A stretch of DNA of 64,000 nucleotides from an uncultured Bryobacterales bacterium (lineage in GTDB: Bacteria; Acidobacteriota; Terriglobia; Bryobacterales; UBA6623), in assembly GCA_958295955.1 (NCBI GenBank), contig OY282420.1, positions 726,236-790,235 on the forward strand, read 5' to 3'. This document shows, piece by piece, positions 3,501-9,500 of this stretch. Position 1 is the stretch's first letter. Each line of letters begins with the position of its first letter. A program made the position numbers.

Positions 3501-6500
3501 GCAAAAGTGGCGCGTCCTGCCGGGAGCGGCGTATGCGTCGGCGAATTCTTGGTGTTGCGCCCCCACGCCGACAACTTGCTGCCCGGCTATCTTGAGCAAC
3601 TCCTTCGATCGAAACCGATTATCGATGTAATCGACGCCTCGACATTCGGAGCCAAGATGCCGCGCGCCGATTGGCGGTTCATCGGAAATTTGGCTTTGCC
3701 TCTCCCGCCCCTCGCAGAGCAGGCGACCATCGCGCATTATCTGGACAACGTTACCGGACGCATCCGCCGCTGCATCGCCGGTAGAGAGCGGCTCGTCGGC
3801 CTACTGGAAGAGAAGCGCCGCGCCGTTATCCATCGCGCCGTCACCCGCGGCCTCGATCCCAACGTCCGCCTGAAACCCTCCGGCGTCGAGTGGCTCGGCG
3901 ACGTTCCGGCTCATTGGGATGTCGCTGCTCTAAAGCACCGATACTCGCAATGCCTTGGCAAAATGTTGGACTCCAAGCGAATCACGGGCAACTACTTGAT
4001 CCCTTACCTCCGGAATACCGATGTTCAGTGGAATCGAATCAACATCGAAGATCTTCCAGAAATGGACATTCCTCCAAACGAGTACAGTCGCTATACAGTT
4101 CAACACGGCGACTTACTTGTATGCGAGGGCGGAGACGTAGGCCGGTGTGCGCTTTGGTCGGGTGAATTGGCCGTGTGCGGGTTTCAGAAGGCGCTGCATA
4201 GACTCCGGCCTCAGAATGTAGGTTGGGACGTGCCGCGTTTTATGTATTACGTCCTTCACGCCGCAGTGAACGGCAACGCTTTCAACGATGGCCACATGAG
4301 CACCATCGAGCACTTGACAGGGGATAAGTTTAGAACGCATCGTTTTCCATTCCCGCCCTTTGCCGAGCAAGCCGCCATCGCCGCCCATCTGGACAAGGCA
4401 ACCGCAGCCATAGACGCCGCCGTTGCTTGCGCCCGCCGCCAAATCGAGTTGCTGCGCGAATACCGCGCCCGCCTGACCGCCGATGTAGTCACCGGCAAGC
4501 TCGACGTGCGCGAAGCGACGGCCAATCTACCCGATGAATCCGGCGAATCGGTAGTCTTGTTTCCAGAGAAACGATCCAAGTAGGGTTTTGGGCTTTCGCC
4601 GTTGTCCGCCCATTGTTTCCGCGCACGGACGCTGCAACGAGAACGCAACGTTCAGGCCGGGCGGTTACACGGCGAGCCGCGGCCTTTGCCCTTCTGGAGT
4701 CGAAACGCGCTGCACGACCGCTATGACGGGAACGGCGCCGTCCGAGAGATGGGCGGCAAGCGCACCGCGAACCGATCAAGCCGCTCTTAAGGTAACCGTT
4801 GCTCCAGATGCATTCTGGTATCCCACCAATCTGCCTCTTGTTTGTAACCGGCCGCGATGTCTTCCAAAACGCCACCGACATATGGAAATTCGAAGGAAAT
4901 CCGCCGCTTACATTCGCGATATGAGGCTGCTAGATCTCGTTCTTGCCTGCCGCCCCTGCCCCGCAATTGAACCCCTCTGTCGTTAGATGTCCCCATACAA
5001 AAGCCTATACCGACATCCTTCGAGGCCATCCATTCGAGAACCTCGCAGATCGAACGGCAAGGCCATGCGCCATCCTCATCTGCCGGGGCGCGAGCTAGAA
5101 GCTGACCGATCATCTGATCGCCAATTGCGGCCCGATCATACTGTTTGCAAAGCGCACGAACTTCTCGAAGCCAGTTTTTCAGTTTGTCTGTACGGATCGC
5201 GCCATGATCGCCAGTTCCTGGAATGCGCCGCATTTGATATAAAAAATAGAATGCTGCCTTCTCCATCGTCCTGCGCCGTTCAGGATCATCGATGCGCCAC
5301 TCAGACGGATCTTCTCCGTCGTCTCTACGCTTGAAGAGCAGGGTGATCATCCGCACATACAGAGCGGGTGAACCAACAACCTGCTTTTCGAGATTGGGAA
5401 TGCCGCGTTCGCTGCGCTCAAGCACCGCAAGATACGGAAATTCCAGCCGGGCCTTTTCCTCGCTCGCTACCCCAGGCCGTCTGTCCAATTCTTCGAAAGC
5501 TGCGGAGATATAATACTCTAACGGATCATGAACATACCTGTTTTCTGATGTAACTGTGGGTAGGATGTCAAGAAGGCGCATCAGCCGTGTTGTCTCGACC
5601 TTGCTCCAGCATCGGCGAGCTACTTCAAAAGCAGCCCACGGGCGCTCTACTGCCAAAAATCTGTCGATTGGTTCGTTGATGCAATCTTTCTTATAGTGCC
5701 CAAATGTTCCGGATTGACCCCAATATGAATTCCTGATTTTTTCCGGTTCGGCATCGACTCGTCGCCAAGTTTCCGCTCGGAACGGCAGGCAGAGATACAA
5801 GAAAATCAAATCGTCCTGCGAACAGGATCCGTCGCTTTTCCTGACGAACATTGCAATGGAATCGGGATCTTCCTCCCATAGAAATCCTTTAAGGCAATTC
5901 TCGTACTTCGTCTTTGATCCATCGGACGCCGCCCGCAGGCAGGACCGAACGAAATCGATTCTCGCGCTCTCCTCTTGCAGCAACTCCGCCATGAGCCCTC
6001 CGACGATGCCCGGTTCGCTTCGATCCAGCAAGGCATCTACACCGTCGAAACCGCGTTCTCGCCAGATCTCGCGCAATGCTCCGAGTTGCCGTTCACGGAT
6101 GATTGACGACCACTCGATCCAGTCCGGCAAGAATAGCTGCGCATGGCGGATGACCAAGTCTTTCGGCTCAAGCTTCGCCAATACTTGGGGCGGACACGCA
6201 AGGCTATCGGAGAGATCGTCTTGGATGTGTTGGATGCGTTGGATGCGTCGGCGCAAATCGGCTTTGGCGTCATCGGACGCATCGCCGTCCGCCCAGCCTT
6301 CGATCAGCTTCCAGACAGCCTCCCCGTACCCCTCTCCCAGTGCTTCGAGCCGTTCTACGAGCTCCCACAGGGTCTTTTCGTCATGGTCGGGCCGATTCAA
6401 GGCAAGATCAATGGCTTTGCGGACAAAGGCGCCCCTTTCAGCCTGCGATACAGGCTGTCCCGCGCCTGAAGCATCGCTCCGCCAACGCGGACGTTGATTG

Positions 6501-9500
6501 TAGTGCCCGACCTGCTGCCCCGGATTGAATTGCTCAATACACAACGTCCAGCCTATTTCGGGATAGCGCGATACGAGGGTTTCCAACACTCGTATTCGGT
6601 CTTCCACGGGAGCAGCGGTCTGCGGCATCCAGGATCGGAAAATGCACTGGAGCGAGTGTTCCGGCTTGTTCGCCCAGTTGTCTTTGATCTTCCGGGTGGA
6701 AAGCCGCGCGAGGATGTCGGCGACTCTCGGAAGATTTCCGGGGTTCCAGGCCAAGCGCTCCAGCGCCCACAACAAGCCTGTCCGACCAGGACGGCTGCCG
6801 AAGATCGGATCGCTTTCCGGTCGCATCAGTTCAAGAGTTGCGGGTTCGCTCTCGCGAAGGTCCTGTTCGATCAGACGCAGGAATGTCTCGGGGGCGGCTT
6901 CCGCATAGTCCGGCAGGTCGTCGTCATGCGAGAAGAATTTTTCGGCGGTAAGCGGGTCGAGCAGTTTTTGGATGAGTTCTGAAACTTCCCTTTGGGCGTC
7001 GAAACCCAGTCGTCGGGAAAAACGATCGTTGCCGTAAACAGCCAGCAAAACCAGAGTTTCACGGATGCCGCAGCGCAAGGCTTTCGAATGATTCCGCACT
7101 TTTCCGTAAACTTCAGCCATCCATTGCTTGTCATCGGGCAGGTCGAGGGCAGGGTCTTCCTCCGAAAGCATGTATTCAGCCGCAAAAAAGAAATTGTCGA
7201 GATTCGATTTGGTGATGAAACCGGCAATCGCAAACAGCGCATCGATCCTGGAGACGACGCCCCGATAGTCCCCGACCGACCAGACCGGCGGATCGTCGAG
7301 ACGCAGCAACTCCGCGGTGTTGTCTTCGACTGTTGAGTCGCCGGCATTGGCGAGCAAGCGGATAGCCTCGCGGTCACCGCGTGACCCTTCATGCCATGCG
7401 CCGGCTAACGCCATGGGTACGAGTTTCTTCGCGGTTTCCGCATCACTCGCCCACTCGGGTGTGCAAATTGGGGGGAGGCGCCTCCGCAAAATTGTCGGCG
7501 ACCGCGCGGATTCCCGCGCAAGTCTCTCTACCTCATCCCCTGCGATGTTCATCGCGCTGAGGGCTTTCTCGAAATCCTCGTAGCTCAAAAGGTTGAGCGT
7601 AATATCGGGTTGGGAATCCACGTCATTACTCGGCCTTACAACGATGCAATGAAAGCGGCGATAGAACCCTGAAAGCTCTCTTTCCACGTCCCGGCCGTGT
7701 ACCGCGATCACAAGAGAAGCCGGCGCCGCCGTGTCGAGACGCCGCAGCGCTTCCGGCGTATTGCAGACGATCGTCCGTTGCTCCAAAGCGTAGGTTTTGG
7801 GTTGCTCCGACTTGGCGAAAGACGCAAGGAAGGCGAGCGCTTCATCCTTCGAGTCCGCGGCGATGACGAAAGGACGGTCGGGCTTCCCCTGCAACCAATC
7901 CTCAAATTTTTTCTTGGATTCCCGAACGGCCGCGTCGAAAAGCGCTTGCGGCAGTTTCGGCTCGCTTGCCGAAGCCCAACGCGACCAGCACTGCTCAAGC
8001 GAGCGATAGTCTTGGGTCGGCTTGGCAAACCAGATTTGCACCGGCGCGGACTGCTCGATCCATTGCTCCAGGTCGCTCGCGTCATAGGCCCTGACGTCCT
8101 TCCAGTGTCCGAGAGCTTTTTTGGCTTCCGCCCATTGACGTTTGTCCGGCCAATTGCGCGGCGTCACGAAGACGAACGTGCGTCCGGCCCGGTCTTCCGG
8201 CGGTACGGATTTTATCCGCGCCGCATAGTCCCCATCGGCTTTCGACTTGAGATCTTGGCTGCAACTGAACTCCCAGCCGGACCTGCCTTCCGGTACCCAG
8301 GGCGTAGGCTCCACCGTCTCGACGAGGCCGTCCCAACCCTTCCGTTCGGCATTGTCATAGGCGGGGAAATCCACAAGTGCAAGATTCCGTCCGGTCGAAT
8401 GGATCAGTCTTCTCAGAAGCGCCGGAAGCTGCTGCCTTGCCTCGATACGGTTGGCCCAAATTTCGATCTGGTGCGCCTTGATTGTAAGGATTGTCGGCGC
8501 ATAGGTTCCAACGGCCGCGGTCTGCTGTTGCGCGGATTCCTCCCAAGAGTCGAGCCGGGCCTGAAGATCGAGAAGGTATTGACGGTCCGCGCCGAACGCC
8601 CGTTCGAGACGGCCGGCCATCTCCTGCGATAACGCCGCCTTGCCGTTCAGGAAGTTGGACAGCGCGGGGCGACCGACGCCAAGAAGCTTGGCGGCCGCAG
8701 TAACCGTCCGGCCGGGCGGAAGGACGTGTTCCCTCACGTATCGGCCGGGATGGATGGGTTTCTCAGGCATGGTTGCCTCCTTTCTCGATAATTATAGCCC
8801 GTAGCGCAACAGAAGTCAAATTCTTGTAGTGATATTTCTAACTTTTCGCCAGAAACCCCGCCGCTCGGCTAAACTGACCTGCATGCCCAACCGGTCCATG
8901 CGTTGGTCCGCCGGTTCGATGCCGCGGGGGCGCTTTCGAGACCGCATCCCGCAGCGTCCGGCATTCGGCCTGTCGGCATACCTCCCAAAAGAACTCGATA
9001 TCCGACCTATAACCCCCACGAAAGCAACATCATGCGCTCAAAACCAAAAACAAAACATATCCACGCCATGCAACCGCGTCTCCTTCCTTCCGTCCTTTTC
9101 CTCGCCCTGCTGCTCGGCTGCGGCGGGGGGGCCGAGCGGCGCCCGAACATCCTGTTCGTCATCTGGGACGACGTTTCCTATCCGCACGCCTCGGCTTACG
9201 GCTCGAAGATGGTTTCCACGCCGGCCTTCGACCGCGTCGCCCGCGAAGGCGTCCTGTTTCATAACGCTTTCGCCCCGGCGCCGGGATGCAGCCCCACGCG
9301 CGCGGCGTTCCTGACCGGCCGCCATATCTGGATGATCGAGCAGGCGGGCACGCATGCAAGCTCGTTCCCGCAAACCTACCTCTCGTACCAGGACCTGCTC
9401 GAAGAAGCCGGCTACGCGGTCGGCTTCACCGGCAAGCCTTGGGGTCCCGGCAAATGGGACGTCTCCGGGCGCACGCGAAACCCCGCCGGCCCCGAATACA

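Follow-up and report, generated by a model that had tools for sequence, protein, structure and literature searches.

The window analysed here is a 64,000-nucleotide stretch of DNA from an uncultured Bryobacterales bacterium (GenBank assembly GCA_958295955.1, contig OY282420.1, positions 726,236 to 790,235), and the gene in question encodes a 1327-aa protein that begins with a HigA-type helix-turn-helix (HTH). The gene lies on the minus strand; a first-pass annotation of the window, which gave no strand, had described it as an antitoxin-like HTH fused to a very large region that could not be assigned, and had proposed that it might act as a single-gene sensor and effector. That proposal was supported by the present analysis, which also supplied the missing placement through an effector-NOD-sensor architecture, a structural match to Avs4 and local sequence homology to Avs8. 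We consider that the protein probably is a single-protein anti-phage receptor of the Avs/NLR type, likely independent of NTP and autorepressed. More than 3000 homologues were alignable along the full length of the window protein.

Domain architecture and sequence relatives

At the level of sequence, the earlier statement that no named motif could be found beyond the HTH was borne out, as searches of the whole protein against Pfam, NCBIfam and the PDB (by sequence profile) returned the HTH only. Two overlapping AlphaFold2 models were built from an input alignment of 103 sequences, with predicted local distance difference test (pLDDT) scores of 89.6 (aa 1-760) and 90.7 (aa 600-1327), and were compared with known structures by Foldseek. 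The roughly 1250 aa previously called unassignable were resolved in this way into a nuclease fold, a reduced STAND core, helical and winged-helix domains and an alpha-solenoid (Table 1). The tripartite layout of Avs proteins (N-terminal effector, central NOD and C-terminal repeat sensor) was thereby found, as modelled, in one polypeptide. When the model of aa 1-760 was searched against the PDB, the top match was Avs4 bound to a phage portal protein (8dgf_A; E 2.8e-7, probability 1.0, 801 aligned columns), followed by a STAND-TPR protein (6mfv), NLRP2, CED-4, Apaf-1, Dark and clamp-loader AAA+ subunits. In the models, the nucleotide-binding domain, whose small four-stranded alpha/beta fold spans aa 301-380, is followed by a helical bundle (aa 397-431) and by a winged helix of the helix-helix-helix-hairpin type (aa 444-505), which complete a NOD-like module, and the solenoid runs without interruption to the C-terminus. 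The C-terminal model matched generic alpha-solenoids (karyopherin/HEAT-type, CAP-G and the PP2A-A scaffold). A match to a housekeeping family was looked for, and none was found.

A segment containing GWDG had been suspected of forming a degenerate PD-(D/E)xK-like fold, and in the model it folds as an alpha-beta-beta-beta-alpha-beta core (alpha 109-126, beta 128-134, beta 148-154, beta 162-168, alpha 174-188 and beta 197-202) with invariant acidic and lysine residues. D147, E167 and K177 were invariant in family alignments reaching down to 33% identity; D147 stands where the second strand begins (GWDG), E167 lies within the third (WEF), and K177 is carried by the helix that comes after the third strand, not at ExK. 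The modelled geometry is that of a PD-(D/E)xK site with a relocated lysine, and the domain is a predicted nuclease. Neither the whole protein nor any of 20 isolated nuclease segments matched Mrr_cat or other Pfam families of this kind.

In STAND NTPases, the first strand of the alpha/beta domain is followed by the Walker A motif GxxxxGK[ST]. The position of that motif in the window protein, at the beta1-alpha1 junction (aa 304-314), holds a conserved A-[DE]-S-x-x-E-A-L-A-F, the family consensus there being F-x-V-A-A-D-S-x-x-E-A-L-A-F. S307 and E310 are conserved, and Ser and Glu were also found at the matching positions of the two plasmid relatives inspected, at ~26-30% identity. The loop is several residues shorter, with no glycine-rich stretch or conserved lysine at the Walker A position and no conserved acidic Walker B residue after the third strand, and a Walker A motif at the expected site was present in 0 of 367 family sequences. 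The first-pass annotation was therefore correct in reporting no P-loop, but the domain itself is present as a degenerate STAND nucleotide-binding domain. Because Walker A and Walker B are both gone and a different motif (A-D/E-S-x-x-E) stands in their place, the NOD-like step is probably NTP-independent. Two Walker-A-like strings found by regular expression were rejected as chance matches lying outside the beta1-alpha1 junction, AWIPEGKS near aa 160 sitting in the nuclease domain and AAxxYGKT near aa 555 in a helical loop. The second of these reflects a conserved A-A-x-x-Y-G-K-[TS] (aa ~552-559; window positions 7094-7117) that mimics Walker A in many members and is located in a loop between solenoid helices, outside the alpha/beta domains.

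Among defence families, sequence homology to the window family was detectable for Avs8 (formerly PD-lambda-4) alone. The PADLOC model PD-Lambda-4_A was matched by 25 of 37 diverse members (best E 3.6e-10), and 14 members matched a second PD-Lambda-4_A model; the matches always comprised one collinear stretch of ~110-130 aa, at profile positions about 558-683 of 1283. The plasmid-borne relatives from Buttiauxella, Shewanella (two) and Rhizobium were considered as possible true PD-lambda-4A proteins and rejected, as they gave no match to the Avs8 models.

Operator, modularity and horizontal spread

The N-terminal HTH was confirmed to be of the HigA type by a match to TIGR02607 (antidote_HigA; aa 4-77, E 1.3e-14), with a score of 53.7 bits relative to a cut-off of 47.7, and Pfam HTH_3 was matched by aa 20-66. 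Solved HigA, GraA and VapI structures were found by a PDB sequence search with the family profile, and HigA/GraA structures matched the first 85 residues of the model in Foldseek, with a template modelling (TM) score of about 0.75-0.8 normalised to the target. As had been noted before, a HigB toxin gene is absent, and the 132 bp between the start codon and the divergent sulfatase gene leave no room for one. The sole small upstream open reading frame (ORF; positions 8816-9019, minus strand, 67 aa) gave no match in Pfam or PADLOC.

The consensus promoter and Shine-Dalgarno sequence reported earlier were read directly upstream of the gene and on its strand (Table 1). In an alignment of the upstream regions of four close relatives, the -35 box, most of the -10 box and the spacer CTGT[TA]GCG[CT]TACG were conserved. 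An inverted-repeat search of the window promoter alone returned nothing, because the palindrome is imperfect there, and the operator became visible only by comparing many loci. In loci from many phyla it has a clearer form, a ~28-bp palindrome (for example, TTGTATTGTGTAGCGCTACACAATACAAT; comparison of 60 loci) whose outer arms double as a -35-like TTGTAT and a -10-like ATACAAT. The whole promoter approaches a 28-bp palindrome, TTGTATTGTGTAGCGCTACACAATACAA, with arms that double as the -35 and -10 boxes. Within 200 bp upstream, the core TGTAGCGCTACA was found with at most two mismatches in 41 of 60 loci (background 0.006 per 200 bp) and with at most one mismatch in 26 of 60 (background 0.0003 per 200 bp), and GTGT-N6-ACAC with at most one mismatch was found in a 250-nt window in 47 of 64 loci (background 0.045 per 250 nt). 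In the upstream sequences read, and in the window, the palindrome lies between the -35-like and -10-like hexamers.

Operator and recognition helix appear to have changed together. One clade, including Aeromonas, Serratia and E. coli HS, has the recognition helix SRPGVSNFLNGKVS instead of GRPALSN[FL]LNG. This clade keeps the GTGT/ACAC arms, and in three of the four members with usable upstream sequence the centre reads AACCTT, TTGCCT or TTGCAT; the fourth (locus L069) keeps a TTGCGT centre. No such palindrome was found upstream of the two HTH-less loci examined. The conserved helix, the conserved palindrome at a repressor's position and the co-variation of the two provide good comparative support for self-repression through the HTH, as the earlier annotation had proposed; from these sequence comparisons autorepression is likely, and we infer that it proceeds through binding of the palindrome.

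The part of the protein from the winged helix through the sensor was also found joined to other N-termini, a modularity that is typical of NLR-like and Avs proteins. In rhizobial plasmid copies, which form a distant clade, the N-terminal position is taken by an HTH of the C-protein type (PADLOC Control_protein, E 5.8e-13). A 1187-aa relative on a plasmid of Shewanella baltica OS117 (locus L084, 3110-6673) has an unrelated N-terminal domain of ~300 aa, beginning MAQDGKQLSNPFSTGSGGPRFE, for which no match was found in Pfam or PADLOC; its gene immediately follows AbiD and a gene whose annotation reads superinfection exclusion protein B (SieB). On the Buttiauxella plasmid pBTX_57 (locus L082, 4582-7676), a 922-aa relative consists of winged helix and solenoid, with no nuclease and no nucleotide-binding domain, and is preceded by a separate 106-aa protein that matches Pfam HetE-N over its full length (E 1.5e-40). 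Judged from these sequences, the pair may be a split effector-sensor version. A 110-aa 'hypothetical protein' on the Salmonella IncFII plasmid CP074271.1 (locus L083, 6013-6345), 41% identical to aa 450-557, covers the winged-helix region; it adjoins several toxin-antitoxin modules and has the appearance of a gene fragment.

An exhaustive search with residues 85-1284 returned 6715 cluster representatives (50% identity) at E <= 1e-3, of which 2728 were at E <= 1e-30. Most members are ~1355 aa long with an N-terminal extension of ~88 aa corresponding to the HTH, while a minority of ~1260 aa have no HTH, and in databases they appear as 'HigA family addiction module antitoxin' or as 'hypothetical protein'. 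Relatives were encoded in at least 599 loci, and the taxonomic survey covered the best 80 of these, at ~40-50% identity to the window protein. The 80 loci were distributed patchily over more than 10 phyla and included Alpha-, Beta- and Gammaproteobacteria (among them Aeromonas, Serratia and Rheinheimera), the Bacillota genera Paenibacillus, Metasolibacillus and Paenisporosarcina, and Acidobacteriota, Binatia, Gemmatimonadota, Chloroflexota, Cyanobacteria, Latescibacterota, Bacteroidota and Spirochaetia. This patchy pattern across phyla at such identity indicates, as far as sequence comparison goes, horizontal spread of the family.

Mobile elements were frequent carriers. Full-length copies were plasmid-borne in 15 cases, with many more among distant relatives, and HTH-less members were located between integrase and resolvase genes or in an integrative and conjugative element (ICE) near relaxase and type IV secretion system (T4SS) genes. 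In E. coli, a copy was present in 10 of 5426 complete genomes, with 92% DNA identity to the Serratia copy; that of strain HS (WP_000128902.1) is the last gene of an element integrated between guaA and yfgI and adjoins a PIN-domain gene. Ahead of it (locus L094, 10121-16097) are a 335-aa PIN-domain protein and a HigA-annotated ORF of 185 aa, which overlaps trbL and is possibly what is left of a second copy. A 340-aa ORF occupies the position matching that of the PIN protein in the Serratia locus (L066).

ORFs were called in 81 loci and all neighbours were clustered. No neighbouring gene was conserved among these loci, and no cluster occurred in more than four of them, which argues that the gene works alone, in agreement with its earlier description as a single-gene system. 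Conserved synteny of a vertical, non-defence kind across a phylum was not observed. Immediate neighbours in the 80 loci included Type I methyltransferases (5), HmaC (2), CapP/M78 peptidases (2), RmrA (2) and integrases (2), and also AbiEii, AbiTii and a TOTE primase, so that defence or mobile-element genes do stand next to homologues, as a qualitative tally.

The locus and its neighbours

Coordinates of the gene, its parts and its closest neighbours are collected in Table 1. The gene was visibly richer in AT than its surroundings, as noted before, with a GC content of 57.1% relative to 63.9% for the window; 5 of 121 gene-length sliding windows had a GC content equal to or below that of the gene (minimum 56.7%), and together with the two adjacent genes (Fic and HsdS) it forms an islet of 58% GC.

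Table 1. Features of the gene, its upstream region and its neighbours (positions are those of the window)
Feature	Residues	Position	Strand	Basis or remark
Whole gene	1-1327	4787..8770	minus	ATG start, 1327 aa + stop codon
HigA/XRE-type HTH, predicted autorepressor head	1-84	8519..8770	minus	Profile and fold matches
Disordered linker	85-98			AlphaFold2 model
Mrr-like PD-(D/E)xK nuclease fold	99-250	8021..8476	minus	Model and invariant residues
Reduced STAND-type nucleotide-binding domain, four strands	296-395	7586..7885	minus	Model
Helical domain and winged-helix domain	397-505	7256..7582	minus	Complete NOD-like module
All-helical alpha-solenoid (~820 aa), predicted sensor of a ligand (phage protein)	508-1327	4790..7249	minus	Models
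Segment homologous to PD-lambda-4A/Avs8A	615-745	6536..6928	minus	PADLOC profile
In-frame 3 x 9-bp tandem repeat		6221..6247	minus	Lineage-specific
Shine-Dalgarno AGGAGG		8776..8781	minus	5 nt ahead of ATG
Promoter TTGACT-17 nt-TATAAT		8791..8819	minus	Direct reading
Putative operator core TGTTGCGCTACG		8800..8811	minus	-35/-10 spacer; 2 mismatches to family palindrome TGTAGCGCTACA
Candidate HTH target DNA TTGACTTCTGTTGCGCTACGGGCTATAAT				Putative, as is the consensus palindrome
SoFic-type Fic protein		1811..2983	plus	Full-length PADLOC SoFic match, E 5e-118
Type I restriction-modification specificity subunit HsdS		3186..4583	plus	Convergent with gene

The tandem repeat noticed earlier was confirmed (cgcatccaa cgcatccaa cacatccaa, encoding RIQRIQHIQ). 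Its segment is poorly conserved and the repeat is common to the window protein and its closest relative only; as a functional feature it was rejected for being lineage-specific, and on this sequence comparison it is probably incidental. The window protein is the shortest of its clade (1327 aa relative to 1352-1358 aa), owing to six small deletions relative to an 89%-identical relative (at aa 250, 432, 478, 887, 1073 and 1113), the largest of which removed 13 aa after residue 887, in an acidic and poorly conserved loop.

Both neighbours named in the first-pass annotation, Fic and HsdS, were confirmed. SoFic is a known single-gene defence system, and the Fic protein gave, in addition, a weak C-terminal match to HTH_13. 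Neither HsdM nor HsdR was found among the neighbours scanned. In relatives with 86-89% identity the gene order (sulfatase, window-gene homologue, HsdS, Fic) is preserved, beside PSCyt1/PSD1/DUF1501 genes of a kind typical of Planctomycetota, and the Fic-HsdS pair is kept in two close relatives (loci L087, 12281-15053, and L088, 12268-15040). In the 89%-identical relative (L087, 3608-7189), the sulfatase gene and the HTH gene are held apart by an inserted 1193-aa Dsr1 (SIR2_2; PADLOC E 1e-146), at the place where the window has only 132 bp, and the site thus behaves as a small variable defence hotspot. On the far side of Fic, a 564-aa ORF of 70% GC (75-1769, plus strand) gave no Pfam match and, judging from the synteny of relatives, may be spurious, an antisense frame across a PSCyt/PSD1-type gene running off the window. 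Positions 8903-13896 hold a cluster of sulfatase, AP_endonuc_2 and dehydrogenase genes. By gene content, both flanks would suggest a Planctomycetota host.

Proposed mechanism, alternative readings and comparison with known systems

If the protein is an anti-phage receptor, the C-terminal solenoid would bind a protein made by the phage, and the NOD-like module would turn ligand binding into a conformational change or oligomerisation, probably without NTP. The Mrr-like domain (D147, E167, K177) would then cut DNA, so that the phage is stopped or the infected cell killed; this step is suggested by the architecture and by the invariant residues of catalytic type. The HTH, as a dimer, would bind the palindromic operator between -35 and -10 of the gene's own strong promoter and keep the level of a dangerous protein low. 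Gene, promoter and operator probably spread horizontally together, as one self-contained cassette. Much more tentatively, the family might represent a large branch of NLR/Avs-like receptors without nucleotide binding in which the receptor is its own transcription factor, with ligand-driven oligomerisation both firing the nuclease and freeing the operator, resulting in self-amplification.

Several observations weigh against a receptor of this kind. The window protein's own match to PD-Lambda-4_A is weak (E 1.6e-3, aa 623-733), and the sequence homology to Avs8 spans only ~10% of the protein. The lysine of the predicted active site is outside the canonical (D/E)xK position, and no Pfam nuclease or NTPase model was matched, even by isolated domains of 38 diverse members (the 38 isolated segments scanned against Pfam represented nuclease and NOD, the 20 nuclease segments among them). 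Global superposition on STAND structures was poor (TM 0.1-0.35, high root-mean-square deviation), and the assignment of the NOD therefore rests on the local fold (Foldseek 3Di scores) and on the order of the domains. Ordinary housekeeping genes are numerous among the neighbours (rpsU and gyrB in Mesorhizobium, for example), and the neighbour tally had no matched control, which makes defence enrichment a qualitative statement. Anti-phage and nuclease activity, like DNA binding and oligomerisation, are inferences.

The same parts could serve, with considerably lower probability, a conflict or stabilisation module of mobile elements (exclusion, addiction or an anti-plasmid nuclease) whose trigger is not a phage structural protein but, for instance, foreign DNA, modification state or loss of the element, in which the HTH would also aid DNA targeting. 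Many copies do reside in integrative elements, ICEs or plasmids, and Mrr-type nucleases are classically modification-dependent restriction enzymes. Set against this are the combination of an 820-aa solenoid with a NOD-like module, which is the signature of protein-sensing Avs receptors (10.64898/2026.01.04.697583), the homology of the solenoid part to the capsid-sensing Avs8, and the presence of bona fide anti-phage genes among the neighbours.

We find it more improbable still that the protein is a signal-sensing transcription factor of the STAND type, like MalT, AfsR or GutR, whose output would be transcription from the palindromic operator, with the nuclease-like domain as a non-catalytic scaffold. 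Such regulators exist (cited in 10.64898/2026.01.04.697583), the HTH and its operator are conserved and the NTPase motifs are degenerate; the only conserved operator found, however, is that of the gene's own promoter, and there is no conserved regulated neighbour. In HTH-less members the remainder of the protein is intact, the three residues D147, E167 and K177 are invariant, and the distribution over phyla is patchy and linked to mobile elements. The name given in databases, a genuine HigA antitoxin of a type II toxin-antitoxin module, agrees with the TIGR02607 score above the cut-off and the good structural match to HigA/GraA, but is effectively refuted by size (1327 aa relative to 90-138 aa for solved HigA, GraA and VapI chains) and by the missing toxin (no HigB-like ORF, and no conserved partner in 81 loci), the other 94% of the protein being conserved and of Avs-like fold.

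Should the anti-phage receptor reading hold, thousands of 'HigA family addiction module antitoxin' entries would be re-read as large immune receptors, correcting a systematic annotation error and adding a widespread candidate defence family that is unrecognised by PADLOC 2.0, Pfam and NCBIfam. The family would offer a natural test of whether receptors of the NLR/STAND type signal without binding or hydrolysing NTP, a question so far raised by a single degenerate Avs8 homologue only, and the fused repressor with its co-varying promoter-operator would be a compact and portable example of how a toxic immune gene is silenced after horizontal transfer. The E. coli HS homologue makes the family experimentally accessible.

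Among known systems, the best structural match to the window protein was Avs4 (EcAvs4, 8dgf). Avs4 was reportedly described by Gao et al. in 2022 as a PD-(D/E)xK (Mrr-like) nuclease, a STAND ATPase/NOD and a TPR-like helical-repeat sensor in one polypeptide, which is the same order of parts as in the window protein. The two differ in that no sequence similarity is detectable and the global TM-score is low, and in that Avs4 is an ATPase-type STAND protein that tetramerises with ATP, whereas the window family has no P-loop. The window protein thus lacks the NTPase of a canonical Avs, and has the defence or mobile-element context and the patchy spread. No HTH is known from Avs proteins. The text of a 2026 Avs census makes no mention of HTH or XRE; that census was seeded by PSI-BLAST on NTP-binding domains (10.64898/2026.01.04.697583), and one seeded on NTPase domains could miss a family without a P-loop.

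Judged by sequence, the nearest relative is Avs8. The system, from E. coli, was discovered as PD-lambda-4 by functional selection (Vassallo 2022; PMC9519451). Under its later name, Avs8, it is described as an Mrr nuclease plus STAND NTPase to which HK97-fold major capsid proteins are the trigger and which has a second gene, Avs8B, encoded alongside (10.1101/2025.07.02.662641). The likeness extends to length, HTH-less members being ~1260 aa relative to the 1283-position profile, and to the layout described for Avs8A, in which an Mrr-type nuclease at the N-terminus is followed by a STAND core and a helical sensor. In contrast to Avs8, the window gene has no Avs8B-like partner, the downstream gene being the convergent HsdS, and most members of its family have an extra N-terminal HTH of the HigA type. 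For the Klebsiella homologue KpAvs8, the Walker motifs have been reported to be degenerate, 'suggesting a lack of ATPase activity' (10.64898/2026.01.04.697583); in the window family the shortened domain without Walker A/B was found in all 367 sequences, not in a single homologue. Assignment of the family to Avs8/PD-lambda-4 was rejected, since the homology is local only and there is no Avs8B-like partner.

The first 84 aa resemble HigA antitoxins (TIGR02607) in both sequence and fold. HigA-type antitoxins usually autoregulate through a palindromic operator overlapping their own promoter, and the putative palindromic operator of the window gene likewise overlaps its promoter; the differences are that there is no toxin gene and that the HTH makes up only 6% of the protein, and the database name, applied to the full-length protein, misleads. 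The C-proteins of restriction-modification systems, CapH/CapP of CBASS and BrxR/CapW follow the same logic, an HTH repressor limiting a toxic defence gene by binding at its own promoter, but in the window family the repressor is fused to the sensor-effector itself. As far as anatomy tells, the protein is Avs-like, and it is a member of neither HigBA nor Avs8.

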